From contig OZ244871.1 of NCBI GenBank assembly GCA_965221105.1, positions 767,673 to 831,672 of the forward strand: a stretch of 64,000 bases of DNA, in the 5' to 3' direction. Of the stretch, positions 10,201 to 30,243 are shown piece by piece (positions within the stretch are counted from its first letter, which is position 1; the number at the start of each line of letters is the position of its first letter). This DNA comes from Pseudomonadales bacterium. GTDB lineage: Bacteria; Pseudomonadota; Gammaproteobacteria; Pseudomonadales; GM7GCV1. The position numbers and the translations under genes are program-made. Below the pieces are notes generated by a model. That model worked only from the letters and a program-made list of their open reading frames with translations, made no database searches and was not told the DNA's origin.

Positions 10201-10363
10201 GGAGCAACGAGAACAAGACCTGCTTGCGTTGCAGCTCCGGCTTGAGCAACTCCAACAAGAGCGAGAAACAGAGCCAAAACGCCAGCGAAATCTATATAAA
10301 GTAGCCGATCAAAGAATGTACCCGGTTGCTCTGGAAGTGATACTTCCCAAGGAGGGCAACTGA
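7295..10363 (+). CDS. drmD: DISARM DrmD, SNF2-family helicase
   Basis: SNF2 motifs are present: LLADDVGLGKTIEAG, LILDEAHNA, LATDAASEGADFQ and EIPWNPIRLEQRNGRVDRHGQ. The assignment to DrmD comes from the adjacent drmMI and the drmA/B/C genes. Confidence 0.8.
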   Translation: MQNSGAAPEQGQIVKLRHKIWAVTAVNKTSVQAGSAIHRVALECLSDDALGDDIQVIWEREITPHLIDSTSLPDVTAYDEPQLFDAFIRSLQWGASSLAVGDMLQAPFRGGVQMEEYQLAPVIRATNMPRVRLLLADDVGLGKTIEAGLVTQELIHSHRASRALVICPAHLKLKWVDEMAEKFGLEFKIIDRDSVLKMRKEYGPSINPWASFPRLITSIDYLKTEHPRRLFDEYTRRRREESPNNRPWDLLILDEAHNAAPSGKKQYIRDSERTSLLRSISEQFEHKMFLTATPHNGYRESFTGLLEILDNLRFSRGTDLDKAQLSAVTVRRLKQDISNPDGTPRFPKRVILPRDEISDPQLYVKLNGDEQQLFDLLKAYTESRLSSVDKRSERPLQFILTLLKKRALSSPLALRESLIVHTQNAGVKDELGIGESLFNSFEQKEAEDWSDDEEKEDNLEAATSTASKLISDLTDEEKRFLQEMYEIVDKQVSHFSIQEDSKATALVSWIDNNLRVDDEWNGERVIIFTEYKHTLNYLERVLEKHGYLDATRTIVGGMKDGDRQRINDEFQAPNSETGVRILLATDAASEGADFQKYCRNLIHYEIPWNPIRLEQRNGRVDRHGQKADEVRIHHFVYNNQEDSEFLKHIVDKVETIRNDIGSVGALIAENVRRKALGQSVNLAAIDDDARRKMAQEEMTIEARENEGVAQMVEALSKARSALDISDSNQLQLLDQALRLEGCSDAIKQLGDDEFILFQVPIAWTECKTYLSSDYLQKRLSFNRTKARDDDAIGIVHLDHPLMRRAISTFRIQMWGTQSSRQHLSRVTITESDTVSSPAVIAWGRLVLLGPEHNRLHEGLVRCQLLIRDNELVEQEILRPEDATPFTGDIANIQELIHPQLEAVTEKLSTTADAQASVLIDTLKERGELARKHAQSLATERITAIRNAIKEWQKRSADLQMQFAFDDEEQEQREQDLLALQLRLEQLQQERETEPKRQRNLYKVADQRMYPVALEVILPKEGN

Positions 10364-14292: not shown

Positions 14293-15111
14293 TCAATACT
14301 CAACAAGAACTGCTTTATACTTCAACAGATCAAAATGCTGGGCAATCCGTTCACTGGGTTGCCCTTGCATCCTTACGCCCATTTCCATGTTGCGATCCAG
14401 CGCATACATAGTCAGGTTGGCCGAGGTCACCAATGCATCGTGACGATCGGCCACCAGCACTTTGGCGTGCAGTTTCAGGTGCTTTTCATCGGCGGGAATT
14501 TTCCAGGTTAGCAGCTGCGGCAATGGCGCAGTCTTGGGCCAAAGCGATACCAGGGTATCTCGATTGTTTTTTCCGTAACCCTTTTCGCCTTCGTCCAACA
14601 CCATCGTCACCTTAACGCCCCGCGTTACTGCATCTGCAATTAACTCGATGATGTCATTAATAATGCCCTCATGGTCTTCCTTACCCGCCAACCAGTAGCC
14701 CACCACCAAGAGTTCGGATTGGGCCGCAGCTATGATGTCCTGCACCACTTGGCGGGTGGCCCGCAAATAGGAGCCTTCGACCTTGGGCCCGCTCCAGACG
14801 ACTTCAGTTGGTGTTGCCTCGCTCGCTGTGAGTACTACAACTTCCTTTAAGGCGGCCAGTTGAAGAGCAAATAGTGTATTACTCTGTGAATCAAACTGCT
14901 CGCTCCAAATCCGAAGCAGGCGCGTTAGTGCGGCCTGCACGCCAGTTCGTCCTGCCGCCAACTTCGAAATGCTAGCCGAGCCAGATTGCGCGGTAAGTAA
15001 ACCAGACTCAATGGCAGAAATAACTTCACCAAAAGCGCCAGCATTGATCAACTGCCGAACACTCTGTGCCAACGCCATTGCGGCGCTATCAATTGAATCC
15101 GGCATGGCCAT
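14293..15111 (-). CDS. drmC: DISARM DrmC, phospholipase-D-family (HxK) nuclease-like protein
   Basis: A single HKD-type motif is present (HLKLHAKVLVADRHDALVTSANLT). The protein is about 270 aa and lies directly downstream of drmB. Confidence 0.8.
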   Translation of the reverse strand: MAMPDSIDSAAMALAQSVRQLINAGAFGEVISAIESGLLTAQSGSASISKLAAGRTGVQAALTRLLRIWSEQFDSQSNTLFALQLAALKEVVVLTASEATPTEVVWSGPKVEGSYLRATRQVVQDIIAAAQSELLVVGYWLAGKEDHEGIINDIIELIADAVTRGVKVTMVLDEGEKGYGKNNRDTLVSLWPKTAPLPQLLTWKIPADEKHLKLHAKVLVADRHDALVTSANLTMYALDRNMEMGVRMQGQPSERIAQHFDLLKYKAVLVEY

Positions 15112-15114
15112 CTC

Positions 15115-16914
15115 CTAATTGAAATAAGCCATATCGCTGTATGCCATAGTGGGTACCAGGAAGTTCCTGTCCAGGAATCGGTTAAAGGCTTCGCAGGAAG
15201 TTTCTGGCGCCAGCACACAGGCATGGCAGGCCGCACCGTTGATGGTGGCATGCACATCGGGCTGGTGATCGGCACAAAGGGGATCCGATGAGCAGCGCTT
15301 GGCGTTCTGAAGGGCGCCGTGGATTAAGTTGGGGAAACGTTCTTTTGTGCCTAGATCGACTAGACCGCCCAGACTGCCCTCCGAGTCGGCACTAGCGGTG
15401 TATAACAAGATACCTGCCATTTTGCGTTCGGGGTCAGTACTGCTGTAGATACGCTCACGCACTGAAGATTCCGAATAGCCGCAATCCAGAGCAAGCTGAC
15501 GCATCAGCACATGAGCCAGGCTATGCAGCAATACATAACGAGCACCTGGGAAATCATCGGCATCAACACCGCGCTCAGTTGCCCATTCTCTATATTTTTG
15601 CTCTATGGCTGCGGCCCATTTTTTAACTGCAGTCTCCGCCTCCCAGTTAGTCAGTGCTTCATCCTTCAACTCGATGAAAATGCCCTCACCACGTACTTCC
15701 ACCGCTGGCAGCCAGTCCTGGCGCTCTTTGTAAATTGGTGCACGTGAGGCACCCATGCCATCGTCGTCCATACCAGATGCGTAGTCGATACGGGTGAAGC
15801 TTGTAAGCGCCCTAACTTCCAACAATTTTCTGGCCAATACAATGCGCTCGATTTTGTCAGTTAAAAAATCCGGGACTTCACCAGCCTCCAGGAAGAAATC
15901 GGACTGGTCGCCCTGGTTGCTCCCCTCAATATCCCGAAAGGCATGCCATTCCGGTAGGCGCAAGTCGATTTCGTCTGTCTCAATTTCTCCCCGTTCTTTG
16001 AGCAGGGTCTGCCAGATATCTTCGGCCTTGAATTCAGCCAAGGCGGGAAACATTTCCATATCAAGCAGGGTTTGCAGCTTGGTCAGAGAATCGATTTTTT
16101 CAACCTGATGCTGTGGGCACTTCTTAAGTGCTTGACCGACAGGACTGGCCGCCTCTTTTATTGACAAGGCACTGCGAACCAGCGGAAACCATCCGTTTGT
16201 GGCTCCGCGTTGAATCGCCCGCACTTGACCAGCATGGCTACATTCGTGGGGGTCTTTATTTTTTATGCCCAGCCATGGTCTCTTGCGCGTACATTCTCCC
16301 AGCGCCAGGCTGCGGTTTTCGCCAAATGCATCGCTCACACTGCGTTTGGCATCGCAAGCACAATAGATCCAGATATCGGACACAGAACCAGTATTGCCAG
16401 AATAGACCAGGCGCATACGTTTTTTACAGCTTGTATCGGCATCCCTGTGGACGTAGGCTCGCCAAGGGAAATCATCGATATGACCACTTGGACAGGCCAC
16501 CACAAAAGGCGCAGGAACTGTGGGAGCCCGGAATCTGCCGCGCCCCTTACAATTGGGCGCTTTGCACTCCATTTCTTGTGATTTCTCGTTGTATTCAACC
16601 AGGCCTTCGCCCGGTTCAGACAGAGTGGCGCACTCTGGATGGGTGCAGACCTGATAACGTGGAAACAAAAAGGTCGGTACAGTACCGCGTTTGGTAAAAA
16701 AACTTCCACTGGCGGGCTCGGCGGAGAAGAACCGCTTTACCTTCAGTGCTCGCTGGAGACGTGGCTCGTGAATGACTTGGTCTTCATCAAGCCGCCAGCC
16801 ATCAATGCCTGCGACAATGACCGATAAAGTCTGCAGATCAACTATAGAACCTGGGCCAAAGGTTGTGATCACCTGGCTTGGACGAACGTCGCCGATTGCT
16901 CTTTTACTCGACAT
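15115..16914 (-). CDS. drmB: DISARM DrmB, DUF1998-type protein
   Basis: The N-terminus reads RPSQVITTFGPGSIVDL. There are Cys-rich clusters and a C-terminal CHACVLAPETSCEAFNRFLDR that is typical of DUF1998. I prefer the ATG at 16914 because a GAGGAG sits 7 nt upstream. The ORF could also start at the GTG at 16923. Confidence 0.8.
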   Translation of the reverse strand: MSSKRAIGDVRPSQVITTFGPGSIVDLQTLSVIVAGIDGWRLDEDQVIHEPRLQRALKVKRFFSAEPASGSFFTKRGTVPTFLFPRYQVCTHPECATLSEPGEGLVEYNEKSQEMECKAPNCKGRGRFRAPTVPAPFVVACPSGHIDDFPWRAYVHRDADTSCKKRMRLVYSGNTGSVSDIWIYCACDAKRSVSDAFGENRSLALGECTRKRPWLGIKNKDPHECSHAGQVRAIQRGATNGWFPLVRSALSIKEAASPVGQALKKCPQHQVEKIDSLTKLQTLLDMEMFPALAEFKAEDIWQTLLKERGEIETDEIDLRLPEWHAFRDIEGSNQGDQSDFFLEAGEVPDFLTDKIERIVLARKLLEVRALTSFTRIDYASGMDDDGMGASRAPIYKERQDWLPAVEVRGEGIFIELKDEALTNWEAETAVKKWAAAIEQKYREWATERGVDADDFPGARYVLLHSLAHVLMRQLALDCGYSESSVRERIYSSTDPERKMAGILLYTASADSEGSLGGLVDLGTKERFPNLIHGALQNAKRCSSDPLCADHQPDVHATINGAACHACVLAPETSCEAFNRFLDRNFLVPTMAYSDMAYFN

Positions 16915-16919
16915 CCCTG

Positions 16920-19900
16920 TCACTCCTCGTCACTCAAATAAAAAGCCGCCGTTGGCTCGACTTCGCGCAATGAGCCCGGCGTTGACCACTGGCCTTCATT
17001 GTCGGTACCCGAGGTCTTTAACAAAACACGCGCGTTGTTTGGGGGACGCTCCCCACTCTTTAGCCAGGAATATCGTAATAAATCGTCAGCATAATGTGCC
17101 CAGTCGTCACGGCTCGACATGAGTCGTTCTTTAACCAATTGAGCGTTTTTCTTACCCACCAGATCCGCTGCACGCAAGGTGATATCTGTGATCATTAAAT
17201 CCGTGCCGGGAGATGCCGGGTCGAAATTCTGGGCCTGAACTTCACGAGCCATGTTTTGCGCGCCCAGCCGCTGTAATGCCGCAAAGGCACCTCGCAAGCC
17301 CCTGTCCAAAGCCCGCGAAGAGAAAGGTGTCACACTGATAGCTTCAACATAACGGTAAAGCGCCGCATGGTAAGCCCGAAAATGTTCGTAATGGGAAAGG
17401 TCCCTTGCACCCAGCCAGTTGTACATGGTGATGACCAGGCCGGGATGTTTACGGCCAACTCGACTGGTTGCCTGAATATACTCGGCAGTGCTTTTCGGTT
17501 GACCTGTGACAACCATCAACCCGAGCCTGTCGATATCTACACCTACCGAAATCATGTTGGTTGCCAACAGGACATCGACAGGGTACTGCTTGTCCTTTTC
17601 TCGAGGAAACTTATTATCCAACCGTTTCAATAGACCAGGAATCCGCCAGGAATCGAGGCGACTGGTGAGTTCATCTGGATCATTGATATAGCGCTGCGGG
17701 AATCCTCGCTGTTGCGCCAGATAGCGTAGGCGCTTTTTAATGTCGTCCTCGACCAGCCTGCGTGCGCCACCGAGCGCACGTAGACTGTTGAAGTAACCCA
17801 CCACCGTTGCATACGGATCCGCGGCTTCAGGATCTCGGCTGATTTCTGCCTCCCCCGCCGCAAGTAGTGCCGCATAGACACGAACCAGCAGGGTTTTTGT
17901 ACTAGAGCCCGGTGCATTTAAGCCCACATACAGACGCCCAGCCATTTTATCGTCGTCCAACTTGATCTCTTGCTCTTTGGCAAAGAAAGAATCTTTGGAG
18001 GAAAGGCCGCTGGGCGGGAAGATGGCCAGGTCGCGGTTGTAAAGCTGCCGAATTTGTTCGTGAGCTCGCCGTATGGTCGCAGTAGACGCAATAATCTTGG
18101 CCGGTATTGTGACTCCGGTTTCGTCTTCAACCCGACTAAGGAAATCGACGGCCGTCTCATATAACCCGACCATGGTGCCTAAGGGGCCGGAGATTAGATG
18201 GAGTTCATCCTGAATAATCAGTTCTGGGGGAACTAGACGGCGCGCTGGTTGATCATCTCTTACAACCCGCTGATTCGGTTTCTCACCATGGCCAGGAGTT
18301 AGATGGCCGTAGGTGGGGCTGTAGCGATTCCGCAAGCCAAAGAGCGCTTGGGTTTCACCCTTGAAAGGCATGCGGGCGAATTTGTCGACCGTGGCTATGA
18401 CCAAAGAGGGGCATTCGCGATAGATTTCATCATCCACGACCACGACGGGTAAGCCTTGGTCGTTAGACTTGCGGGCGCAAAACTCACATTTTGGATTTGG
18501 ACAGCGAACGAGTGTCCTCAGTCTTGCATTGTCGAAGTCATAAGTTTGATTTTCTGGTTTGCCTTGTGGGGTCACTAGGGATGTACCGCAACGCGGGCAT
18601 GATACCAATTGAACAGGGCTGCCCTCCCTGGGTTTCTTACCTTCGTCGAGATCTTCAAGCGCTTTTTGCGATGACTTCGCATCATTTGGTGTGGTCGCCT
18701 TACCCACCCACAAACCAATCTTGAAGGGTTCATCACCCCACTTTTCGGTATTGGATTGGCGTACCAATTCGCATGCACAAATGAGGGCGGTGGCACGCTG
18801 GAACTGCTGAACCGTCAGCAGTCGCAATGTATAGCGCATGATAATGGCAACACCTGCGCTGGAATCGAGACCATTTACATCGCCCCGCAGTCGGCGATAT
18901 GCCAGAGTGAATGCAGCCAAACCAAGGTAGGCTTCTGTTTTTCCGCCACCCGTGGGAAACCAGAGCAAGTCGACTAACTTGCGATCCGCAGCTACTTTCT
19001 CACCTGGCTCCGGCTTTTTGACCATACTGGCAATGTTTAGCAGGATGAAACCCATCTGAAATGGTCGCCAAGTGCGATTGTGTTGCTCATCAAAATCCGC
19101 CGGATTACCAACAATTTCTCCGCTATCCCGATTGCGACCAGCCCATATGACGTGTATGCGTTGATCCCACATCACATGATTGGCAAACAGGAAAGCCTCG
19201 AATGCTTTAGGCTCATTTCTGATGAGTTCCAAACCAGCGCGCATTCTGCGTGCAGCATCAGCACATGACTCGATTAAAACTCTTGCCGTGTCTTGGTTTT
19301 CTGGAGTGGAGACAAATGGTTCACCTTTTGCTTCTTGCTTCCTGTCTTCAACCCATTGCTCGTAGGACAAAATCAATGGTTCGATAGCACTGAATAAGTC
19401 GCTTGGTGTTGAGAACTTGCTCAGCTCGCGCATGTCCAGGTTCAAGCCTGGTATGTCACCACTTTGTGCAATTAAGCTTGGCACCTCAAAGTTAGGGATA
19501 AAGTCAGTAAATAAGATGCTGGCTCTATCACGTTCTGCATTGAGTCCATCCCAGCCGGCAGCCACACCGTGGCCCGTCGCAAATTCTTTAGCATCCCGAT
19601 AGAGGATGTTCGCTGTAGCGATCTCAGGGTCTTTGGAAAGGTCCTTATCAAAATCCTTGGCGATAAATATTGGAGCCGTATCAGACGAGAACACCTCCAA
19701 TCTTGGCTGCAAGAGCCATTGCTGATCTTTTGCTCTGTCGGAATCTTCACCTTTGGGACGCCTATTGACCAAGAACAGACTGATCGCTTTTGCTCCATCG
19801 ATGTGATGAACAACACCCTCCAAGAACACCTGGGCATCACCATCGCCATCTTCTCCGGGTCTGCGAAAGCCATCAGGAGTTATTGCGATACTTGCTGGCG

Positions 19901-20351
19901 CATTTGATTTTGACAGGGGAATCGCGCTGATCTTTCCTACCGCATTAACCGGTATACCCTCGACCAGAACAGATCGCTGATACCTCTGCCAATAAGTACC
20001 GCCTTCGGATTCATTTTTTTCACGACGATAATCTCCCCAAGTAGCCTTGGCATTTATCGTTTCAGTATCGGTAGAGACCAGGAAAGATAAACCCATAGAC
20101 GAAGGGCTAAAGCCCACAATCAGCGGAGGTTGTGGCTCGTACTCACCACCTTCATCATCATCACTCCCGGCCGCAAACTGGTCATTTTCAATTTCCGGTA
20201 TCTCGGTATCCAATGGAGCTAGGCGCCCAACGATATAACGGGTGGTGGGAAACTCTGTTATCGTTTCGTCTAGAGAAGTAGGCCCCATTAACTCGCGTGT
20301 AAGGGCCTCGAGAATTCTGGAGCGCGACTCTCGCTTACTGCTATCAGGCAT
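16920..20351 (-). CDS. drmA: DISARM DrmA, DExH-box helicase
   Basis: Helicase motifs are present: FPTGGGKTEAYLGLAAF (motif I), QDELHLISGPLGT (motif II) and QATSRVGRKHPG (motif VI). The ATG at 20351 lies in ATGCCTGA, overlapping the stop of the upstream methyltransferase. The ORF track extends to 20426. Confidence 0.8.
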   Translation of the reverse strand: MPDSSKRESRSRILEALTRELMGPTSLDETITEFPTTRYIVGRLAPLDTEIPEIENDQFAAGSDDDEGGEYEPQPPLIVGFSPSSMGLSFLVSTDTETINAKATWGDYRREKNESEGGTYWQRYQRSVLVEGIPVNAVGKISAIPLSKSNAPASIAITPDGFRRPGEDGDGDAQVFLEGVVHHIDGAKAISLFLVNRRPKGEDSDRAKDQQWLLQPRLEVFSSDTAPIFIAKDFDKDLSKDPEIATANILYRDAKEFATGHGVAAGWDGLNAERDRASILFTDFIPNFEVPSLIAQSGDIPGLNLDMRELSKFSTPSDLFSAIEPLILSYEQWVEDRKQEAKGEPFVSTPENQDTARVLIESCADAARRMRAGLELIRNEPKAFEAFLFANHVMWDQRIHVIWAGRNRDSGEIVGNPADFDEQHNRTWRPFQMGFILLNIASMVKKPEPGEKVAADRKLVDLLWFPTGGGKTEAYLGLAAFTLAYRRLRGDVNGLDSSAGVAIIMRYTLRLLTVQQFQRATALICACELVRQSNTEKWGDEPFKIGLWVGKATTPNDAKSSQKALEDLDEGKKPREGSPVQLVSCPRCGTSLVTPQGKPENQTYDFDNARLRTLVRCPNPKCEFCARKSNDQGLPVVVVDDEIYRECPSLVIATVDKFARMPFKGETQALFGLRNRYSPTYGHLTPGHGEKPNQRVVRDDQPARRLVPPELIIQDELHLISGPLGTMVGLYETAVDFLSRVEDETGVTIPAKIIASTATIRRAHEQIRQLYNRDLAIFPPSGLSSKDSFFAKEQEIKLDDDKMAGRLYVGLNAPGSSTKTLLVRVYAALLAAGEAEISRDPEAADPYATVVGYFNSLRALGGARRLVEDDIKKRLRYLAQQRGFPQRYINDPDELTSRLDSWRIPGLLKRLDNKFPREKDKQYPVDVLLATNMISVGVDIDRLGLMVVTGQPKSTAEYIQATSRVGRKHPGLVITMYNWLGARDLSHYEHFRAYHAALYRYVEAISVTPFSSRALDRGLRGAFAALQRLGAQNMAREVQAQNFDPASPGTDLMITDITLRAADLVGKKNAQLVKERLMSSRDDWAHYADDLLRYSWLKSGERPPNNARVLLKTSGTDNEGQWSTPGSLREVEPTAAFYLSDEE

Positions 20352-21591
20352 AGACGTTTTCCTTTTGCTCGCGTTTCTTTGCACCTGGACCTTTCCCTGT
20401 CCCGGGATGTGCATCGTGAGCACCAACCAACGTCAGATACTTTTTAGGCACAGCCTTAGGCTTTTCAGGCGGAGGACAGTCATTTCTCTTTTCAGGAATG
20501 AGCTTAAGCTGCTTGCGTACACGTTCACCAAAAAACTGTCGGCGTATTTCCAACCCAAAAAGTTCGCCAATAGCCGGAGGTACCGCATTGCCGATTTGCT
20601 TATGAGCTTCCCGTCGATCACCAGCAAACTGATAATCATCCGGGAAAGTTTGAAGACGGGCGAGTTCTCTAACCGATAGCAATCTTCCCTTCCAGTGAAA
20701 AGGGCCAGTTGCCGGACCTGGTTGTGCTTGAATTGTCCAGCTAGGCTTGTCTTTAGCCAGCTTTAGGAGAAACGACCAAAAACGTGTTCGCCAACCAAAC
20801 AGGGGTAATCCACCCGATTGTTCTGTGTGCCACTGGTAGTTTTGCCCTTCAGGTATGGTTGGCAATAAATCGCCCCATTTCCCAGATGGCTTAACGTCAT
20901 CAGGCCAAATATCGACATCCAAATCACCAATAGCATCCCAAACAGTTCTGTAGGGGCTTTTTGTTTCTTTTGTTATGGATGGATCGAAGTGTGTAGGAGC
21001 AGGAAGGCCGAACCGGGTGCCATCTCTACTTGCAATGATAAATACCCGCTCCCGCGACTGCGGCACGCCGTAATCAGCGGCATTAACTGCTATCACGTGA
21101 GGTTTGTAGCTCGTTTTCTTATCCCCGTTAATCCTGTTCAATTCATTTTCTAAAAGTTTTAAGCCTTCGTCTTTATCCGAATAGGCTATCCCCTTAACAT
21201 TTTCGAGCAGAATAACTTGTGGCAGAGCTTCGCGAACAAATTCAAGATAGGCTTTCAATGTCTTGGCGCGAGGATCTGACAACCGCTCAGTATCGCCTGT
21301 CACCCAGTAGCCCGATTTTGAGAAGGGTTGGCAAGGTGGTCCGCCAGCGAGTAGCGTAAGCTCCCTCGGCTTTAGACCGGATTGTTTCAATAATTGACCT
21401 GGTGTTAACGCGTGAATATCTCCGGGACAAGCTAGTTTCCACTTTGGATGGTTCAGGGTGAGCGTTTGCTGCGCGATATGATCGATCTCAACGCATAGTT
21501 TGTTGGTAAAGCCTGCCGTACCCAGCCCAATATCTAGCCCTCCGGCACCGCTGAATAGCGAAATCATTGTTTTGATAGGCTTCTTACTCAC
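20344..21591 (-). CDS. drmMII: DNA (cytosine-5)-methyltransferase, DrmMII-like by context
   Basis: C5-MTase motifs are present: ISLFSGAGGLDIGL (I), GGPPCQPFS (IV), ENVKG (VI) and QIGNAVPP (X). The GTG start overlaps the stop of the HTH gene (GTGA). Confidence 0.75.
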   Translation of the reverse strand: MSKKPIKTMISLFSGAGGLDIGLGTAGFTNKLCVEIDHIAQQTLTLNHPKWKLACPGDIHALTPGQLLKQSGLKPRELTLLAGGPPCQPFSKSGYWVTGDTERLSDPRAKTLKAYLEFVREALPQVILLENVKGIAYSDKDEGLKLLENELNRINGDKKTSYKPHVIAVNAADYGVPQSRERVFIIASRDGTRFGLPAPTHFDPSITKETKSPYRTVWDAIGDLDVDIWPDDVKPSGKWGDLLPTIPEGQNYQWHTEQSGGLPLFGWRTRFWSFLLKLAKDKPSWTIQAQPGPATGPFHWKGRLLSVRELARLQTFPDDYQFAGDRREAHKQIGNAVPPAIGELFGLEIRRQFFGERVRKQLKLIPEKRNDCPPPEKPKAVPKKYLTLVGAHDAHPGTGKGPGAKKREQKENVYA

Positions 21592-21818
21592 AAATGATTC
21601 TCGTTTTTTTGGTATTCCAGTAGTTCACCAACGGAAATTGAAAGATATTCACAAAGTGTGTTGATCGTTTCTAAGTCGACACGCACCAGCGTTTCATGGT
21701 ACATCCTGGTTAGTGTCCCCCGGTTGATTCCAGTGTCTCTGGCGACATCTGAAATTTTGAGCTTTCGCTCACCCAACACCCTAGAGAGGTGACACTTTAT
21801 CATCGGGATATCGCCCAA
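21588..21818 (-). CDS. Small XRE/Cro-type HTH protein (controller-like) heading the minus-strand DISARM unit
   Basis: The HTH_3-like segment is KLKISDVARDTGINRGTLTRMYH, in an ORF of 76 aa or less. The ORF is translationally coupled to the C5-MTase. Confidence 0.7.
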   Translation of the reverse strand: MGDIPMIKCHLSRVLGERKLKISDVARDTGINRGTLTRMYHETLVRVDLETINTLCEYLSISVGELLEYQKNENHL

Positions 21819-22028
21819 ATTGCTCTACAGAAGATCATTTTTTGCTTTATACGCTACATATTACACCATTATGCCGTCTGGGCAAGAAGTTCATCGCCGT
21901 GGGTCGCTAGATATAACAATTCCTCATGTTTTCTTCTTTTCTGCAGTCCTTTGAGCTTCCGACACCAGCCCATAACCAACGCACCAGCATGATTGGGGCC
22001 TCACCGCATTCACCATGATTCACTTTCC

Positions 22029-24317
22029 TTAACTACCACGCATGGTAATAATCTTCCCACCAGCATTTTCGATCGCGTCAAAAACCAAGTCCCGAACATT
22101 ACTCAAGAACTCCGAAGACTGAGGCGTCAACTCGATACCGGGTATTGGTGCAGCGGTTTGGTAGATGTTTCGAACATCGCGTGCGCGATCATACGAAGAC
22201 CCTCTGCCAGCATGCTCGAAGGCACGCGACCAATCGATTAAGTGCTCCTGGATCAATCGTTCCATCGCCAACGAATGCAGGGACTGGAACACCTCACTGC
22301 GAACAACATCGATCGCCTCGGACTCCTCCTCTTCGTTATTACCATGGGGATCCCACTGCACGGGTTTATCGAGAAAGCGGGAAATCCCCTCACTGAGGCG
22401 GGCGATCAATTCTGCGACCGGTCTCAGGTAGTCGTACTCCACACCCCCCATCCTTGCGACACGCCTCGTCAACGCCTTGATACGGGTCCAGTGTTCCTTC
22501 GAGACGCTCTCTTGATACTGGTAACCAAGTCTGGCGTTCCATAACGACTGGAATTCCTGTGTCGCCGCTTGCACCGCAAACGACAGACTCGCGGGATCGT
22601 AAACCGGTGCAGCTGCCGGCGGCTCGAAGGGTTCGATAGCACTGCGGAAAAAATTCACCAGAGCGCCGAGTTGTGAGAAAACCCCTTTTGGGATCTTTGA
22701 AGCAGGCTTGTCCAGCGCGCCTAGCATGAAGCACCGGCTGTACAGGTGCCCTTCCATGCTATTGATCACGGAATCGCCCACCGTCGTACGCATGTTGCTA
22801 AGCGCGTTCTTCACCGAAGCCAAAACATGATCGCGTCGATCTGCAAAGCCGGAGAAATTGACGCCTTTAACCTGATCGAAATGGGTAAACGCTACGGCCA
22901 ATTTGTCCTGGTGGCCACTGGTTGCAACTGAACGTACTACAGAAAGAGACCAAGGCTGCATGGGTTGCTCGGCGTTATCAACGAGGAGAATAACATCAGC
23001 CATCTGGTATCGACTGGTGAAGTGCGTGGACACATCCGCCACCGTTTCGGACACATGTCCCAAGCCTTCTCCATCCATGAGCACCAGCCCCCTTGTCTCG
23101 CCAATTGCCTCGGCAAAGAACGGACCGCGAACCCGCACACCTTGCACGAAGGGTGTCAGTAATCGCCCGAATGCTGGCGCATAGTTGCTCGAAAACCAAC
23201 GAACTTGATTGATGAAATCTTCCCTATCGGCAGATTCGAACGTCCATCTCTCGGGCCATTTTCCCTTTCGCTTGAGTTCGCCGGCCGTCAGGTAGTCAAA
23301 CCGTTTCAAGACCTGATCGATGATGTCTTCGATGAGAGCATCGTAGCCTGGCATTTTTTCGAGGATTTCCTCAAAGTAATCCAATACCAAGTCGAGATCC
23401 TCTCCCTTGAGGCGCAATACATCTTCACCCCACTCTTCCGAGACCTTGGCTATGGCGACTTCTGCTATCTCTCTGATGCGCTTGGCATACTCCGAGAGTT
23501 TCTCCTGCATCTCTCGGCGCTCATCAGCTGATGGGTAGGCACCCTCTTCTGAGACTTGTTCAGATTCTGTTTCAGATTGCTCCTCTACGTCATCGAAACC
23601 CCAGTCGTCATCGTCTGCCTGAATCTCCTGCTCGGACCAAGACCCCAAGATATAGCCCAACCGAAAGCGCTGATCCCTATGGTTGAGCAACTCCTTGACG
23701 ACCTTCTCATCTGATTCACCCCGCCAGACAGCCTTGCAGGCCTCGTCGATTGATTCCTGGGTATAGGTCCGCACGGTTCCTTCGGGGAAGAAGGTCACGA
23801 CAGACTGAAAATCACCATAATCCGTAATGACCTCGATATCCGATACGGTGGTTTTGCCAGTGGAGGTCGATGGGAAACGATCTTTTTCCGGATGGGAGCC
23901 GATCATGAGTCTTAATAACGATGTCTTGCCTGCTCCGGTGGTCCCAAGGAATAGCACCTTGGTGAAGCCTTCTTCTGCAGACGGAATCGGGATTACTTCA
24001 TCTCTGGCCTTCCAGGGATCAAGGTGTGCATCAGCCACCATGGGATCATAAAAACCATCGACTATTACCTTGGCAAACTGACGTTCTGCCCGTCCTTTCT
24101 GGCTAAGACTCCAATACGATTCATCGCCGAGAAGCACGTTCATTTCGCTGACGAGCTTGTCTGCTTCCGCTTCGTCCGTGGTTCCCAGACCTCTTCTCAC
24201 CTTGATTCCGCTGCTGCTGCGCGGATCTTTCTTTACAACAGGATGACGGAAGGTAACCGCCCAGGCACTTCTACCCTGCGAACGAGTTTTTGAAGCCGAA
24301 TATCGTTGTTTCACCAT
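22029..24317 (-). CDS. Uncharacterised GTPase-like P-loop NTPase with an integrase-arm-like N-terminal domain
   Basis: Walker A GTTGAGKTS is encoded at 23919-23945. A DxxG-type motif (LVLMDGEGLGH) sits at aa 412-422 and a [NT]KxD-like AFTHFDQV at about aa 477. The N-terminal 65 aa (GRSAWAVTFRHP...GIKVRRGLGTTDEAEADKL) resemble arm-type DNA-binding domains of tyrosine integrases. The ATG at 24317 is preceded by GAGGAG. Confidence 0.6.
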   Translation of the reverse strand: MVKQRYSASKTRSQGRSAWAVTFRHPVVKKDPRSSSGIKVRRGLGTTDEAEADKLVSEMNVLLGDESYWSLSQKGRAERQFAKVIVDGFYDPMVADAHLDPWKARDEVIPIPSAEEGFTKVLFLGTTGAGKTSLLRLMIGSHPEKDRFPSTSTGKTTVSDIEVITDYGDFQSVVTFFPEGTVRTYTQESIDEACKAVWRGESDEKVVKELLNHRDQRFRLGYILGSWSEQEIQADDDDWGFDDVEEQSETESEQVSEEGAYPSADERREMQEKLSEYAKRIREIAEVAIAKVSEEWGEDVLRLKGEDLDLVLDYFEEILEKMPGYDALIEDIIDQVLKRFDYLTAGELKRKGKWPERWTFESADREDFINQVRWFSSNYAPAFGRLLTPFVQGVRVRGPFFAEAIGETRGLVLMDGEGLGHVSETVADVSTHFTSRYQMADVILLVDNAEQPMQPWSLSVVRSVATSGHQDKLAVAFTHFDQVKGVNFSGFADRRDHVLASVKNALSNMRTTVGDSVINSMEGHLYSRCFMLGALDKPASKIPKGVFSQLGALVNFFRSAIEPFEPPAAAPVYDPASLSFAVQAATQEFQSLWNARLGYQYQESVSKEHWTRIKALTRRVARMGGVEYDYLRPVAELIARLSEGISRFLDKPVQWDPHGNNEEEESEAIDVVRSEVFQSLHSLAMERLIQEHLIDWSRAFEHAGRGSSYDRARDVRNIYQTAAPIPGIELTPQSSEFLSNVRDLVFDAIENAGGKIITMRGS

Positions 24318-24429
24318 CACCGTCTCCTCTGGGGCCAGCCGCCTATCGTTGTTCCACGTTGCCGCGGCTTCATCGAACCCTGAGCCACTAAAATTCTCTG
24401 AAATTGTGGGTCTTGATTCTAAATAATTC

Positions 24430-24447
24430 GTGTACTATATAGTACAC
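24430..24447. promoter_or_regulatory. Perfect 18-bp palindrome (putative operator with embedded -10-like TATATA)
   Basis: gtgtactatatagtacac is its own reverse complement and ends directly at the ATG (24448) of the XRE gene. It lies in the divergent intergenic region shared with the NTPase gene. Confidence 0.6.
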
Positions 24448-24798
24448 ATGACATTCGGAGAATACATCCGTGAACATCGCGAGGCCCTGAAGTCAGAGGA
24501 TCGGCGGTTTTCGGTACGGCAGGTCGCTCAGCGAATCGGTGTGGAGCCCGCCTATCTCAGCAAGATAGAACGCGGGGATGTGGCGCCACCGTCGGAGGCG
24601 AAGATCCGGGCATTGGCCGAGGAGCTTGGCGAAGACCCGGATGTGCTGCTGGCAATGGCCGGGAAGGTATCGACGGATTTACAGGAGATCATTCGCAAGC
24701 GGCCGCAACTGTTCGCTGACCTGATCCGCCAGCTCAAATCCGCACCGGATCACGCCCTGTTGCGTATTGCCCGGGATGTCCGTGATGGCGACTGGTAA
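24448..24798 (+). CDS. XRE-family HTH transcriptional regulator
   Basis: The motif FSVRQVAQRIGVEPAYLSKIERGDVAPPS is a canonical HTH_3. I prefer the ATG at 24448 because the upstream in-frame codons are the palindrome itself. Confidence 0.8.
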   Translation: MTFGEYIREHREALKSEDRRFSVRQVAQRIGVEPAYLSKIERGDVAPPSEAKIRALAEELGEDPDVLLAMAGKVSTDLQEIIRKRPQLFADLIRQLKSAPDHALLRIARDVRDGDW

Positions 24799-24831
24799 CA
24801 CCTGAATTATTGACTCAGGGGAGAAAAGACA

Positions 24832-25158
24832 ATGATCGAACTAATGAACAACCAACTGACCTTCCGGTTTCCGGATGTCCACAAGAAAGCGGTGTGTAGC
24901 ATCGACTTCCAGCGCACCCTGCGGATCCCGGATGATAACCGGGAATACCCCCTCCCCCCGGGTTTGGGTCGTTTCCCGGTGGAGCACGTGGATGACTTCG
25001 CAGACAACTTGCCTGATACCTGGCAGACACATGGTGGCGTCTTCATACCCATGTATCAGTCAGAGGCGCTGTGGATCAATTTCTCTGGTGACTACCCCTG
25101 CGCCGTCAAGATTGACCTTGAGACGGTCGTGGACTTCAGCGTCGAAGTTTTCCAATAG
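24832..25158 (+). pseudogene. 5' fragment of an unknown conserved-looking gene, co-oriented with the XRE gene
   Basis: The ATG is preceded by a good RBS (ggggagaaaag). The well-formed sequence (RTLRIPDDNREYPLPPGLGRFPVEHVDD...GGVFIPMYQSEALWINF...YPCAVKI) runs to about 25113. After that the ORF only reads the antisense of the SNF2 gene before stopping. Confidence 0.45.
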
Positions 25159-27084
25159 CTTCTTGCGAGTATCCTTTAACGTCTCGTCGATGCGTTCCGC
25201 CATTTCACTTTGCAGAAACTTAAAGGCCGTTTCAATTTCTTCCGGTGTACGACAAGTCTGATAAATACCAACTATGCGCTTTTCAAACTCAACACCCGAT
25301 TCAACTGCGCCCAAAACCTCATCGCTTGCTCCAAAGACACCGGAAAACAGTTGGAACTTCTCCGACAATAGCTCGTAGACGCGCTGGTCTGCGGCATTGT
25401 TCTTGTTCAGGAAATTAATGACGACAACGTCGTGCTTTTGACCATATCTATGGCAGCGACCGATACGCTGTTCAATTCGCTGAGGGTTCCACGGTAGATC
25501 ATAATTTACAACGATTGAGCAAAATTGAAGGTTAATTCCCTCTGCTGCCGCTTCCGTGGCGATCATGATCTCGGCGTGATGCCGGAATTGGTCAACCAAT
25601 GCCGCTCGCATATCCGCCGTTCTTGATCCCGTTACTTTGTCTGAACCGGCGTTTTCTGTAATCCAGTGCTCGTAAATTGATTTCGATTGGCGGTCGGTAT
25701 TTGATCCGTTAAAAAGAACAAGTTTACCTTCAAAGCCGTTTTTAAATAGCAGCTCTTGTAAATACTCCTGGGTACGGCGGGATTCGGTAAAGATTATAGC
25801 TTTACGAGGACCGTCCAACTCTGCCGCCTTTTTAAATCCAGCTTCCAAAGCACTCAATAGTGCTTGTCCTTTAGCATTCTCCGTAATGGATACAGCGAGA
25901 TCTCTGAATTCTTTGAGTTCATCGATCTCGTGCTTGATTGCCTCTATATCATCATCACTTAGTAACTCAGGTTCCTCGTCTTCACTCCATTCTTCAGCTT
26001 CCTCAGCAAACCCGTCAAAGTCACTCGTGACTTCTTGAATGCTTTCTTCTTCGTTTAGGCTTTGACGAAGGGCTTCATTCTCTTTCAGACTTTTTTCCAG
26101 CTTTCGAGCCAGACTGTCTAATGCACCAGCGATAGCGAATGTAGAGGACGCTAACAGCTTGCGCATGATTAATGTCATTAGTGTGCGTTGGGCTCTTGGT
26201 AGCGCGTTCAGTGACGGTCGGCGCAAGTATTCGGAAACGAGGTCATAGAGAATCTGCTCGTCTTCGGTTGGGACGAATTCTTGTGTAATCGGAATGCGAT
26301 TTGTATAGCGAATATATTCCAGAACTTGTCGGCGAAGTGTGCGGTGACAAATTGGCTTCAATCGTTCTTTCAATTCGCCAAACTGACTATCTCCGGTTAA
26401 TCGCGCATACTGGGAGCGGAAACTTTTTACATCTCCAAAGGCATAATCATCGATCAAACTTACCAAGCCATACAGTTCCATCAGCGAGTTCTGAAGAGGT
26501 GTCGCCGTTAAAAGCACTTTCGGCGCATTTTCTAAAGCGGCTTTTAAAGTCTTTCCGATCTTATTGTCCGTCCTATAGACGTTTCTAAGTCTGTGTGCTT
26601 CGTCAATGACAGCTAAATCCCAGGAAGTGATCGTTAGTTCATCAGCGTGTCGCGCTGCAAACTGGAATGAACAAATGACAATCGCTGTCTGTTCAAAAGG
26701 GTTGCGCACGCCATCCTTGACCATGCGATTAAAATTCTTAGCTTCTAAGATCAGGGTGGGGAGATAAAATTTCTCTTCTATCTCCTGTGACCACTGTTTA
26801 CGTAAGTTGGCGGGCGCCACAATGAGAATACGTCTTTTTCCTTCTGACCATTTTTGGGAGAGCAGCAGACCAGCTTCAATAGTTTTGCCTAATCCTACTT
26901 CATCGGCCAGAATTGCCCCCTTAGAGAACGGAGACTTGAATGCGAATAAAGCCGCTTCGACCTGGTGTGGGTTCAGATCGACTTGAGCATCTAACAATGT
27001 ACTGGCCAACTTCTCCGAATCACTAGCCGAATGACGTCGAGACAGCTGGTGGGCGAAAAGCTTCGCGTGATATTCAGTGGTCAT
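25060..27084 (-). CDS. SNF2-family helicase, probably 3'-truncated
   Basis: SNF2 motifs are present: ILADEVGLGKTIEAG, VIDEAHRLRN, ATEAAAEGINLQ and DLPWNPQRIEQRIGRCHRYGQ. The last roughly 17 codons overlap the convergent fragment. As I recall, family members with this N-terminus are considerably longer. Confidence 0.7.
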   Translation of the reverse strand: MTTEYHAKLFAHQLSRRHSASDSEKLASTLLDAQVDLNPHQVEAALFAFKSPFSKGAILADEVGLGKTIEAGLLLSQKWSEGKRRILIVAPANLRKQWSQEIEEKFYLPTLILEAKNFNRMVKDGVRNPFEQTAIVICSFQFAARHADELTITSWDLAVIDEAHRLRNVYRTDNKIGKTLKAALENAPKVLLTATPLQNSLMELYGLVSLIDDYAFGDVKSFRSQYARLTGDSQFGELKERLKPICHRTLRRQVLEYIRYTNRIPITQEFVPTEDEQILYDLVSEYLRRPSLNALPRAQRTLMTLIMRKLLASSTFAIAGALDSLARKLEKSLKENEALRQSLNEEESIQEVTSDFDGFAEEAEEWSEDEEPELLSDDDIEAIKHEIDELKEFRDLAVSITENAKGQALLSALEAGFKKAAELDGPRKAIIFTESRRTQEYLQELLFKNGFEGKLVLFNGSNTDRQSKSIYEHWITENAGSDKVTGSRTADMRAALVDQFRHHAEIMIATEAAAEGINLQFCSIVVNYDLPWNPQRIEQRIGRCHRYGQKHDVVVINFLNKNNAADQRVYELLSEKFQLFSGVFGASDEVLGAVESGVEFEKRIVGIYQTCRTPEEIETAFKFLQSEMAERIDETLKDTRKKLLENFDAEVHDRLKVNLDGAGVVTREIDPQRL

Positions 27085-27227: not shown

Positions 27228-27644
27228 TCATTCTGAGAATCCCTGACATCCTGGTGCAATAACCAGGTTTTCCACACCATAAAGCGCCTGCCAGTTCTTT
27301 AGCCATAAATGGTATTCAACCCCTTCCAGACTATGATCTTTTGTACAGTCCACATTCCACCGTCTAAGAACATAGCCTGCAGCAGCAGCGCGCACATTTA
27401 CCTTTAGAACACCATCCTGCATGGCATAATCCATTTCGATGGTCTCAGGGTGAGGTAGATTTGGGTGGGCTACCAAATTCATTTCAACGATGCGATTCCA
27501 CTGAATATCGGCCTCACTAGATTCATGATCTTGTGGGCTATCATCAACAACGACTGGATTCGCTATTCGGGTAACCACAAAGTCAATAAATGCCTGGCGG
27601 TTGCGGTCGAACGCCCGAACATGCCAACGCAAGCCATTGTCCAC
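27228..27644 (-). pseudogene. 3' fragment of a BrxR/CapW-like WYL-domain regulator (wHTH and part of WYL missing)
   Basis: GLRWHVRAFDRNRQAFIDFVVTRI is WYL-like and is followed by a WCX-like C-terminal domain. The homology ends exactly at the left boundary (27644) of repeat copy 2. Confidence 0.65.
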
Positions 27645-27704
27645 ATTGGTTGCTCTGTGGCATCATCGTTTCCAGTATGAACATCGTAACTACTCATTCG
27701 AGAG

Positions 27705-28475
27705 ATGGCACTGAGCAATCCACCCTGGGGTGAAAAACGCACCGCAAAAGAACTTCTCCCCATGCTCTGCATCCATGTGTCGCCCCGCATCGTACGACAA
27801 TATATTCCAGACATTCCACCGTGCGTAACGCACGATCAACGCTGGTCAACCTTTGTAAGAAACCACGCCGACTCAAACATTGCCTGTGATTTCTTCACAG
27901 TAGTAACGATCACTTTCCAAATACGCTTTGTTTTTATCGTTATTGAGCATCGCACACGACGTATTTTGCATTTTAGTGTGACGGCACACCCTACGGCTCC
28001 GCGGACATTGCACCAATTACGTGAAGCGATACCAGCCGGCCATCACTACCAATATCTTATCCATGACCCTGATTGTATTTTTTTATCAGCACTGGATCAG
28101 TCCCTTGCCAACATGGGCGTGGAGGTATTGTTAACGCTCTATCGAGCTCCGCAAGCCAATTGCATATGCGAGCGAGTGATAGGTGCTGTTCTGCGAGAAT
28201 GCCTTGATTTCTTTATTCCACTCACCACCAGACACTTGCTGGGCACCTTGAAAACATGGGCGATCCATTACAATCGCGGCAGACCGCACGCTAGCATTGA
28301 CCCTTCAATTCCTGACCCGCCAGATCATCTTCCGGCGAGTCCTCAAACTCGTCACCACATTATTCCGGAGCATTGGCAGACGCCAAAGCAATACCTATCT
28401 GAATGCACTCGAGAAACGCTTTGGCTGGTTGGCGGAAAATCCGAAATCAGGCACCCACCGCACGGATGTTGCTGA
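27705..28475 (+). pseudogene. Decayed rve (integrase core) fragment, copy 2
   Basis: The translation is identical to that of 4347-5117. Confidence 0.6.
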
Positions 28476-28602
28476 AGGCTATTACAGTTTCCCCCGGGGA
28501 GAATATGTTGTCTTCCGCATGATGGGAGAGAAAGGCATAGATATAATCGGCATCCCGCACAGGGAGATGAACATCATCGTCACTTATTGTCTACCTGACT
28601 GA
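28297..28602 (+). CDS. RelE/ParE-family toxin-like ORF, orphan, copy 2
   Basis: The translation is identical to that of 4939-5244. Confidence 0.5.
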   Translation: MTLQFLTRQIIFRRVLKLVTTLFRSIGRRQSNTYLNALEKRFGWLAENPKSGTHRTDVAEGYYSFPRGEYVVFRMMGEKGIDIIGIPHREMNIIVTYCLPD

Positions 28603-28671
28603 ACAATCGGGTGTAAGGTGATGTCCCTGCTATTGCCAACCAGTGCAAGACATTGCCTGCACCAGCGCCGG

Positions 28672-30243
28672 TCACTCCCACTCAATGGTTGCGGGAGGTT
28701 TGCTGGAAATTTCGTACACAACTCGGGACACGCCGGATATTTCGTTGATAATGCGACTGGATACCCGCTCCAGAAAATCGTACGGCAGATGAGCCCAGCG
28801 CGCCGTCATAAAATCGGTGGTCTCAACCGCTCGCAGTGCTATGACGTACTCGTACCGTCGGATGTCACCGACAACACCGACCGACTTGACCGGGAGAAAC
28901 ACGGCGAACGCCTGACTTACCTGGCGATACAGGTCTGCGGCATGGAGCTCGTCGATGAAGATAGCATCCGCCTCCCGCAACAGATCGGCGTATTCCTTGC
29001 GTACCTCACCCAGGATGCGCACTCCCAGGCCAGGACCCGGAAAGGGATGGCGATAGACCATGTCGTGGGGCAGCCCAAGCTCCAGGCCGATCTTGCGAAC
29101 CTCGTCCTTGAACAGTTCGCGCAGGGGCTCCACGAGCTGCAGATTCATATCCTCGGGCAATCCACCCACATTGTGGTGCGACTTGATCACCCTGGCCTTG
29201 CCGGACTTGGCACCGGCAGACTCAATCACATCCGGATAGATGGTCCCCTGAGCCAGCCATTTGACAGCCCTGAGTTTGGCAGATTCCCGGTCAAATACCT
29301 CGATGAAGGTAGTGCCAATAATCTTGCGTTTTGCCTCAGGGTCCTCCACTCCTCTGAGCTTGTCCAGAAACTCCCCTTCTGCATCAACCCTGACAATTCG
29401 CAGACCACGGCTTTCAGCAAACATTGACATGACCTGATCGCCTTCGTTCTTCCGCAGCAGACCGTTGTCAACAAAAACACAGGTGAGCTGGTCACCGATG
29501 GCACGCTGCAGGAGGGCAGCAGTCACCGATGAGTCAACACCGCCGGACAGACCCAGAAGTACCTGGTCTTTCCCAACCCTGTTGCGAATTGAATCCACCG
29601 CCTCCTGGACAATGTTCGCGGGAGTCCAGCATGGCTCGCAGGCGCAGATATCCAGAACAAAGTGCCCAAGCATCCGGCCTCCTTGCAGTGTGTGGGTCAC
29701 CTCGGGGTGGAACTGGATACCATACAACCGTCGCGATGGATCGCTCATCCCCGCAACAGGACAGGAGGGCGTCGATAGCATCAGTTCAAAACCACTGGGC
29801 AGTTCCACGACCTTGTCACCGTGACTCATCCAGACATCCAGATAGCGCAGCCCTGACTCGATGTGGTCAGAGATGTCCATAAGCAACTCGGACTCCGCTT
29901 CCACCTGCACCCTGGCGTAACCGAACTCACGCAGATCAGAGCTTTCTACGCGGCCGCCGAACCGCTCTGCCATCGCCTGCATGCCATAGCAGATACCCAG
30001 CACAGGCACCTCGGCCTGAAACACTGTGTCCGGTATGTGTGGTGCATTGCCCTCGGTTACAGACTCCGGCCCACCGGAGAGAATGATTCCCGAATACTTG
30101 TGCGGCAGTTGCCCTTCGATCAGGTCGCAGGAATGAATCTCCGAGTAAACCCCAATCTCGCGAACCCGTCGGGCAATGAGCTGCGTGTACTGGGAACCGA
30201 AATCCACAATCAATATGGAGTGTCGATGAATATCCAGCCCCAT
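28672..30243 (-). CDS. guaA: GMP synthase (glutamine-hydrolysing)
   Basis: The product is full length at 523 aa. It has a GATase domain (ILGICYGMQ), an ATP-PPase motif (LSGGVDSSV) and the canonical C-terminus PPATIEWE. Confidence 0.97.

Follow-up and report, generated by a model that had tools for sequence, protein, structure and literature searches.

Dynamin-like proteins are established antiviral effectors in animals, where Mx and GBP are examples, and to our knowledge the bacterial dynamin-like GTPases so far placed in defence are the two-gene Eleos system and DynA. Sequence-specific DNA binding at short repeats is known from other settings: the arm sites of lambda attP are short direct repeats in tandem, spaced by one helical turn, and ParR/parC and TubR/tubC are autoregulated centromeres in which tandem repeats lie at the promoter of the gene for the binding protein. 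Eleos (LeoA/LeoBC) is an anti-phage system of two (or three) consecutive dynamin-like genes, and its defence requires the P-loop (Millman et al. 2022, bioRxiv 10.1101/2022.05.11.491447). Here we describe a GTPase-family gene located at positions 22029–24320 (minus strand) of a 64,000-nucleotide stretch of contig OZ244871.1 from a Pseudomonadales bacterium (hereafter the window), where it sits beside a DISARM locus. The account that we favour, with a little more confidence than doubt, is that the gene belongs to a mobile family of GTPases of about 755 residues with an integrase-type head and a self-repressing operator, that the family is a stand-alone conflict module, and that the window copy is no component of DISARM.

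The GTPase family and its architecture

An earlier note, made from the sequence of the window, had presented the protein as an orphan, a description that the database searches overturn. A word-indexed search with the window protein gives more than 3300 matches, nearly all of about 755 residues and alignable end to end, and a profile search of 1.84 billion representatives yields 1632 clusters (50% identity) at E ≤ 1e-3, 1208 at 1e-10 and 620 at 1e-30; at least 620 have the complete architecture. The family is spread over about 15 phyla, patchily and without synteny; its carriers among species genomes include Alpha-, Beta- and Gammaproteobacteria, Cyanobacteria, Bacillota, Actinomycetota, Chloroflexota, Planctomycetota, Acidobacteriota, Verrucomicrobiota, Gemmatimonadota, Nitrospirota and Spirochaetota, and one metagenome-assembled genome of Methanoperedens. 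Scans of the window protein against Pfam, NCBIfam and PHROGs return no model at threshold, only sub-threshold matches limited to the P-loop, and literature searches found no description of the family or of the domain DUF6538 discussed below. Some NCBI records label family members 'GTPase domain-containing protein'. We conclude that the family is large, uncharacterised and horizontally mobile, and that the window gene is one member of it.

The open reading frame (ORF) and each of the motifs reported for it are present as described. The frame encodes 763 residues from a GTG at 24320 (the coordinates include the stop codon), although the likely start is the ATG in the next codon, at 24317, which is used by homologues and gives 762 residues. 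The P-loop GTTGAGKTS occupies residues 126–134 (23919–23945), the G3 motif LVLMDGEGLGH residues 412–422 (23055–23087), and the G4-like AFTHFDQV residues 477–484 (22869–22892), all on the minus strand as are the other elements of the gene. An alignment of 314 family members shows almost no variation at the catalytic residues: K132 occurs in 312 of 312, D416 and G419 in 314 of 314, and H422 in 311, and position 482 is aspartate in 299 and glutamate in 14. Judged from this alignment, the quoted motifs are under strong selection and do not reflect chance matches.

An AlphaFold2 model of the full protein, built on a 32-sequence alignment, has a pLDDT of 80.7 and a pTM of 0.77. It begins with a basic N-terminal domain of three beta-strands and a helix (residues 5–66; 24123–24308), the putative operator-binding domain, followed by a helical linker (residues 72–109; 23994–24107) and the first half of the GTPase domain (residues 118–230; 23631–23969), which holds the P-loop and a switch-I-like RFPSTSTGKTT (23847–23879). 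The second half of the GTPase domain (residues 345–540; 22701–23288) carries the G3 and G4-like motifs and an invariant block, FGRLLTPxVxGxRxxGP, and leads into an all-helical, stalk-like C-terminal domain (residues 545–752; 22065–22688) that has no recognised effector motif and, on inspection of the alignment, no conserved Rx4-6H motif. The insert between the two halves had been described as highly acidic and coiled-coil-like. Its acidity is borne out, and in place of a long coiled coil the model has a disordered acidic loop (DDDDWGFDD...; EIQADDDDWGFDDVEEQSETESEQVSE, residues 232–258; 23547–23627; pLDDT <50) and a helical insertion of three or four helices that runs to residue 343 (residues 259–343; 23292–23546).

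The acidic loop is kept across the family (mean net charge about −11 where the N-terminal domain is present and about −9 where it is absent) and often includes an acidic-Trp-x-Phe motif (DDDW.F); it may act as a short linear interaction motif. We also considered the loop as a DNA-mimic autoinhibitor of the N-terminal domain, a notion left unsupported by the equally acidic loops of members that lack this domain.

The reading of the protein as a GTPase-type fold with a large insertion agrees with structural comparison. Foldseek searches of the full model against the PDB give ten matches at E ≤ 0.001, all of them dynamin-like proteins, including SynDLP (8.5e-6), IniA (2.3e-5), mitofusin-1 (2.1e-4), the Campylobacter dynamin-like protein (2.1e-4) and BDLP (6.4e-4), and EF-Tu and Toc34 match the core of the G domain. 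The G1 motif, the G2 threonine, and the G3 and G4-type motifs of the dynamin superfamily can all be assigned (GTTGAGKTS, RFPSTSTGKTT, DGEG and THFD), the last atypical in having histidine for lysine. As in the bacterial dynamin-like proteins (SynDLP, IniA, BDLP, Campylobacter DLP1/2) and mitofusins, a large GTPase domain with G1, G3 and G4-type motifs is combined with helical bundles; the family differs from them in about 110 residues of acidic and helical sequence inserted into the G domain, in a G4 of THFD rather than [NT]KxD, in the addition of an N-terminal predicted DNA-binding domain together with an operator of its own, and in that no hydrophobic or membrane paddle segment is evident in the sequence of the window protein. 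Several observations count against a closer assignment. The TM-scores to dynamin-like proteins are low (0.20–0.25); Pfam Dynamin_N does not match the window protein at E ≤ 1; and sequence and profile searches of the PDB find no significant solved relative, with sub-threshold P-loop matches to Der and the LRRK2 Roc domain only. Two divergent members match Dynamin_N below threshold (E 0.008–0.01) beside many other P-loop families. Because the TM-scores are low and Dynamin_N is unmatched we describe the predicted fold as dynamin-superfamily-like only, and leave membership of the superfamily open.

The first 65 residues had been likened to the arm-type DNA-binding domain of tyrosine integrases with no recombinase domain following, and this likeness holds up at the level of profiles. 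When a profile of residues 1–70 was searched with hmmsearch against 16,755 six-frame ORF fragments of family loci, the best match outside the family lay at the very N-terminal end of a tyrosine integrase (E 0.013), with SGKRVRRTTGTTDRKEAEAL in the integrase matching SGIKVRRGLGTTDEAEADKL in the window protein. We then compared the N-domain with a profile of 120 homologues gathered for this integrase; hhalign aligns residues 13–56 with integrase residues 4–38 at 90% probability, an E-value of 1.6e-6 and a score of 42.5, compared with a maximum of 22.8 over 30 column shuffles and 19.0 for the reversed alignment. DUF6538 is matched below threshold (E 0.04) in 3 of 26 family members, and the matched integrases themselves have DUF6538 at E 0.002–0.07 and Arm-DNA-bind_4 at E 0.29, in the same N-terminal position before the SAM-like domain. 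No Phage_integrase catalytic domain is found in the window protein with Pfam. These comparisons support homology of the N-domain to the N-terminal segment, in the arm-type position, of tyrosine integrases. The resemblance to the arm domains of lambda Int and Tn916 Int (Arm-DNA-bind_x, DUF6538) comprises an N-terminal location, a three-strand-plus-helix make-up, profile similarity, and probable targets in the form of short direct repeats set in tandem at one helical turn; the differences are that neither a core-binding nor a recombinase domain follows, and that the sites surround a promoter and not an att site.

The N-domain is not universal. Members of about 650 residues lack it, including copies on Rhodococcus plasmids, copies in Dehalococcoidia and many clusters, and we found no split N-domain ORF upstream of such members. 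In one member of 934 residues (P0270; locus L233, 295–3099) a HEPN_Swt1 RNase domain takes its place, and the 294 nt upstream hold no operator. A tblastn search of plasmids with the N-domain returns family members only.

A family-specific operator and promoter

Upstream of the closest relatives of the window gene are two tandem GTTGTACC sites, a TTGACA box and two inverted sites. The same four-site arrangement is present in a relative (L081) from which the adjacent XRE gene is absent, and the operator thus travels with the GTPase gene. When repeated 8-mers were sought without bias in the upstream regions of all loci, the same motif emerged across phyla, with the consensus GTTGT[AT]CC, arranged as a tandem pair just upstream of the −35 box and an inverted pair between the −10 box and the ribosome-binding site. 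Allowing one mismatch, its density is 16.7 per kb in the 210 nt upstream of the gene, compared with 1.13 per kb elsewhere in the same loci. The 1.6 Mb of family-locus sequence contains 128 tandem pairs, and 126 of them immediately precede a family gene; two of these, at a single locus (L087, 15753–15834), stand before a second paralogue with 38% identity to the window protein. Of the other two pairs, one (L080) is a degenerate match.

The operator and the N-domain go together. Exactly four copies of the motif are present in 40 of 64 loci with the N-domain and at least three in 53, whereas the eight loci without the N-domain have zero or one. Among 160 distinct operators 150 enclose a TTGACA that is exact in 86 and otherwise differs at one position; it begins 6–10 nt past the distal pair, and in 93 it is also followed by TAnnnT at 16–18 nt. 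The four sites are spaced by multiples of about 10.4 bp and would consequently lie on one face of the helix. Comparison of the loci thus supports a family-specific operator built around a near-consensus sigma-70 promoter and co-occurring with the N-domain. Since the sites appear and vanish with the N-domain, and since there is no other conserved gene, the most economical reading is self-repression through the N-domain, with the protein probably binding the sites at its own promoter.

The spacing of the sites gives a further link between operator and protein. The distal and proximal pairs of each of 155 canonical operators are equally spaced, at either 10/10 (82 operators) or 11/11 (73) and never in a mixture, and the class to which an operator belongs follows a one-residue difference in the beta2–beta3 loop of the N-domain. 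Three points temper the proposal of DNA binding. The spacing classes are largely two deep clades, with about three changes on a 124-tip tree, and so few independent events lie behind the concordance. An isolated model of the N-domain (pLDDT 79.8) finds nothing significant with Foldseek in the PDB or BFVD (best E 0.2–0.4). Moreover, DNA binding by the N-domain is inferred from its co-occurrence with the sites.

Several loci show variations. In the defence island at L087 two family paralogues (8001–10295 and 13463–15730) lie about 3–5 kb apart, one with 10-bp and the other with 11-bp operator spacing, and the differing spacing could keep their autoregulatory circuits from cross-talk. On an Azospirillum plasmid (L091, 7578–10346) a small DUF4258 gene is positioned between the four-site operator and the GTPase gene, and the operator seems to control a two-gene operon. 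When metagenome contigs were scanned for the pattern first, a family gene abutted 105 of the 120 loci found, one had no room for it at the contig end, and 14 had none. The operator-like patterns without a family gene are L148, L212, L173, L185 and ten further metagenome loci; three of these share an AT-rich spacer and three tandem GGAACAAC copies, and L185 has a canonical operator with nothing recognisable downstream.

Genomic contexts and possible roles

BLAST clustering of the ORFs in 81 loci reveals no conserved neighbour, and we therefore regard the protein as acting alone, as in the stand-alone option that the earlier note had offered. The XRE gene was considered as a family-wide partner and rejected, as it is adjacent in few loci and is conserved in the nearest relatives only. 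The closest relatives are located at prophage edges: those 92% and 74% identical to the window protein adjoin a large serine recombinase gene, with divergent XRE genes 84–90% identical to that of the window, and a further 92%-identical relative is within a prophage ending in a tyrosine integrase. The defence island at L087 contains DUF499, GmrSD_C, HicA and DUF3800 genes in addition to the second paralogue, and loci on plasmids include a patatin and nucleotidyltransferase pair (CBASS-like), an Abi gene, DEAD/DUF3883 genes and a GIY-YIG gene. In 261 flanking ORFs most of the recurrent Pfam families are HTH_3, N6_Mtase/HsdM_N/HSDR_N, ResIII, SWI2_SNF2, Mrr_cat, AAA_21, Phage_integrase, NOV_C, SEC-C and transposases, along with a few housekeeping families that recur twice, such as FAD oxidoreductases and FtsX/MacB. 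PADLOC matches in the flanks include BrxC, SduA, HEC-01B, HmaA, PDC-S68 and components of type I, II and IV restriction-modification (R-M) systems, and a tyrosine or serine recombinase is located within 10 kb in 12 of 60 long loci. Taken together, these contexts mark the family gene as a mobile accessory that stands alone and has a conflict flavour.

In about 18 of 80 loci the GTPase gene is closely followed or overlapped by a downstream gene, whose identity varies. Among the products are a SEC-C metal-binding protein of 490 aa in three loci, a member of the PD-(D/E)XK nuclease family (377 aa) and a helicase of RecD/Pif1-like type (1257 aa), and in L058, L059, L063, L069, L078, L026 and L014 the downstream gene overlaps the family stop codon by 1–4 nt, its kind differing by lineage. 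The SEC-C partner has no detectable similarity to the DUF3883 protein of L091.

In the account that we favour, the N-domain would bind the four sites and repress its own promoter, and the core, judged from its fold and motif conservation, would bind and hydrolyse GTP and, in the manner of dynamin-like proteins, switch between assembly states. Activation that removed the protein from the operator would free a strong promoter. The contexts suggest that the family may serve as a stand-alone conflict module directed against phages or other mobile elements, to which some lineages would add an effector, either as the HEPN RNase fusion or as the product of a translationally coupled gene (a PD-(D/E)XK nuclease, a RecD-like helicase or a SEC-C protein). 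A bolder form of this proposal, which we hold only tentatively, is that these proteins are a class of single-gene immune GTPases of the dynamin/Mx type with transcription feedback built in. The protein would rest on its operator until an invader triggered GTP-dependent assembly, perhaps on foreign nucleoprotein, DNA or another target; assembly would titrate it off the operator and its synthesis would self-amplify, with effectors bolted on in particular lineages and the 10-bp and 11-bp classes insulating paralogues from each other.

A number of observations weigh against a role in conflict. Several loci have purely metabolic neighbours; the common architecture has no recognisable effector activity; the family gene is in no sequenced phage genome, and its carriers amount to 11 of 72,556 plasmids and 19 of 2.9 million IMG/VR contigs, in the latter usually at a contig end. 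PADLOC 2.0 holds no model for the family, and the enrichment of defence genes in its neighbourhood was estimated roughly, from aggregate counts only. The earlier proposal of a new defence component is plausible, given the defence-island, plasmid and prophage contexts, but unproven because the contexts are mixed; the neighbourhood analysis finds recurrent R-M, defence and recombinase genes and recurrent housekeeping genes as well.

The same contexts bear on an explanation in which the gene is a maintenance device of mobile elements, i.e. a one-protein partition, segregation or addiction system in which the repeats are centromere-like and the GTPase is a motor or cohesion factor. The systems for comparison are parC/ParR, TubZ/TubR and the clamp-binding dynamin-like CrfC. 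Here too short, iteron-like tandem repeats lie on both sides of the promoter of the gene for the putative binder; the gene is found at prophage edges and on some plasmids, and its N-domain is of integrase origin. In contrast to ParR/parC and TubR/tubC, the putative DNA binder and the NTPase are one polypeptide, mostly chromosomal, and members without the N-domain have no repeats. These last members keep the core, and DNA anchoring is thus dispensable for the core function. Most copies are chromosomal, many amid metabolic genes with no element near, and the rarity on plasmids and absence from phage genomes noted above speak against maintenance as well; the HEPN fusion and nuclease partners fit conflict better. 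We consider a maintenance role improbable.

It is also conceivable, though unlikely, that the protein is an accessory cellular GTPase unrelated to conflict, for example a membrane-remodelling dynamin-like protein or a GTP-sensing transcription factor that targets its own gene. The dynamin-like fold would suit this, negative autoregulation is common among ordinary regulators, and several loci have housekeeping neighbours only. Such a role is harder to reconcile with the patchy, non-syntenic distribution over about 15 phyla, the lack of an evident hydrophobic or paddle segment in the sequence, the paralogues side by side in a defence island, the recurrence of R-M, defence and recombinase genes in the flanks, and the existence of the HEPN fusion.

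We compared the family with other defence-associated NTPases. Like Eleos it consists of dynamin-like GTPases found in defence islands, but it is a single gene with no conserved partner and no PADLOC Eleos match. The only PADLOC matches of the window protein at E ≤ 0.01 are to mad8 (7.6e-5) and mad3 (3.7e-3); MADS comprises an operon of eight genes that is absent from the window, and we rejected membership as the match is confined to the P-loop region (residues 122–310 against model positions 30–101 of 314). The anticodon nucleases PrrC and RloC combine a P-loop NTPase (with a coiled-coil insertion in RloC) and a HEPN-type nuclease and are linked to type I R-M systems. The family resembles them in the order Walker A, long insertion and Walker B, in occurring alone or beside type I R-M genes, and in its one HEPN-fused member; it differs in that HEPN is not part of the common architecture and is N-terminal where present. 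Membership was rejected here too, as there is no AAA_13 or ABC signature, only a sub-threshold ABC_tran match limited to the P-loop, and the fold search favours GTPases of the TRAFAC/dynamin type over the Rad50/ABC type.

The window copy and the DISARM island

In the window the gene is flanked as the earlier note described, with a divergent XRE gene upstream and the DISARM unit 210 bp downstream of its stop codon. A 76-aa HTH_26 gene (21588–21818, minus strand) begins at that distance and is followed on the same strand by a C5-cytosine methylase (20344–21591) and by DrmA, DrmB and DrmC (14293–20426); DrmD (7295–10363) and DrmMI (10363–14292) are on the plus strand. According to PADLOC this is a complete class-1 set.

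The possibility that the GTPase is a DISARM accessory working with DrmA, DrmB and DrmC, in the slot that DrmE occupies in class-2 systems, arises from this placement: the gene is on the same strand, 210 bp upstream of the HTH_26, methylase and DrmABC unit, and inside an island bracketed by insertion sequence (IS) elements. The comparison with DrmE gives no support, as the protein matches neither the PADLOC DrmE model nor any other Drm model while its neighbours match Drm models strongly. No DISARM gene recurs beside family members in 80 genome loci and 13 others; the DrmA gene of the window forms a singleton cluster (c1088), and the only shared neighbour clusters are those of the C5-cytosine methylase (c9, 3 loci) and the SNF2 helicase (c34, 2 loci). 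The DISARM set is already complete, and the prophage-module homology described below stops exactly at the stop codon of the gene, which indicates that it arrived as a separate fragment. The accessory reading is largely refuted, and we regard it as very improbable.

A segment of the window at 22028–25112 is related at the DNA level to a prophage-edge module of Marinobacter-type contigs (82% and 78% identity to L085 and L086, and 69% to L084). Its limits are the base after the GTPase stop codon (22028) and a position inside a truncated gene (25112), and the 3.1-kb segment, comprising the truncated gene, the XRE gene and the GTPase gene, is on this alignment the unit that landed in the island. 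The suggestion that the gene is a remnant of the mobility functions of the island is thus right in part, in that the segment derives from a prophage-edge module. The truncated gene (24814–25155, plus strand) is a remnant of about 110 codons of a 333-aa gene that follows the XRE gene in L085, L086 and L084. The 333-aa gene (L085, 6439–7440) has no Pfam match, and in the window it is cut by the end of the SNF2 gene region; we rejected it as a partner because it is found in the nearest relatives only and is truncated here.

The intergenic stretch between the GTPase ORF and the divergent XRE gene (24321–24447) retains a single intact operator site, GGAACAAC on the gene strand (24348–24355), with a degenerate neighbour just upstream. 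A deletion junction at 24362–24371 marks the absence of about 53–60 bp relative to L085, L084 and L081. The intact elements in L085 are GTTGTACCACGTTGTACC-N9-TTGACA...GGTACAACTTGGAACAAC, and compared with these the distal pair, the TTGACA −35 box and the −10 box are gone from the window, as is part of the first proximal site. The gene strand upstream of the window copy shows no promoter-like site. Since the promoter and three of the four operator sites are lost, present expression of the window copy is uncertain.

Whatever the family does elsewhere, the window copy could thus be a silent or decaying relic, to which we give a sizeable chance somewhat short of even; the deletion relative to three relatives, the missing promoter and the truncated 333-aa gene beside it all fit this interpretation. 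On the other hand, the 763-codon frame is intact, and the identity to relatives is 92% for the protein and 82% for the DNA, which indicates purifying selection at least until recently. Expression by read-through or from a non-consensus promoter would also be compatible with the sequence.

The XRE gene (24448–24798, plus strand, 116 aa, with ATG 24448 as the true start) is 90% and 84% identical to helix-turn-helix genes beside the closest homologues. Abutting its start codon is a perfect 18-bp palindrome, GTGTACTATATAGTACAC (24430–24447), which is exact in L085 and has one mismatch in L084 (GTGTACTATATACTACAC); this is presumed to be the XRE operator. The palindrome holds a TATA-like sequence and leaves no room for a Shine-Dalgarno sequence before the XRE start, and the transcript may be leaderless by analogy with that of lambda cI, which is leaderless. 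Its half-site GTGTAC resembles the family operator sequence GTTGTAC.

Other features of the island are as follows. The DISARM locus (7295–21818) has both the DrmMI N6-methylase and the C5-cytosine methylase, whose ORF overlaps that of DrmA by 83 nt, and the HTH_26 gene ahead of the latter methylase has the look of a controller protein. Beyond DrmD there are two SNF2-type helicase genes: one at 25060–27084 (minus strand), whose 674-aa product matches the PADLOC DrmD model PDLC02619 at 2.7e-209, and a C-terminal SNF2 fragment at the start of the window (53–1585, plus strand), followed by an AAA_14/DUF4143 ATPase gene at 1768–2952. Identical 1040-bp direct repeats at 4286–5325 and 27644–28683, each containing a 256-aa rve_3 ORF (an IS fragment, on the right at 27705–28475, plus strand), bracket the DISARM and GTPase island in a layout like that of a composite transposon, and the right-hand repeat abuts the 3' end of guaA (28672–30243, minus strand).

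For annotation of the window, the GTPase gene is not to be counted in DISARM. For the family, the operator pattern is a sequence signature by which members can be picked out of raw metagenomes at a specificity of about 88%, and it is a precise and cheap experimental handle, for which one protein and a short piece of DNA suffice. The operator shared across the family is new, as is the autoregulation that it suggests, and both are specific and testable. The family is far larger than Eleos or DynA and is unannotated, and it joins a GTPase to a predicted sequence-specific DNA-binding head and a conserved four-site operator. If the conflict role is true, it would be a new single-gene system with a new regulatory logic in bacterial immunity; if it is false, the family would still represent a new type of GTPase-coupled autoregulator.

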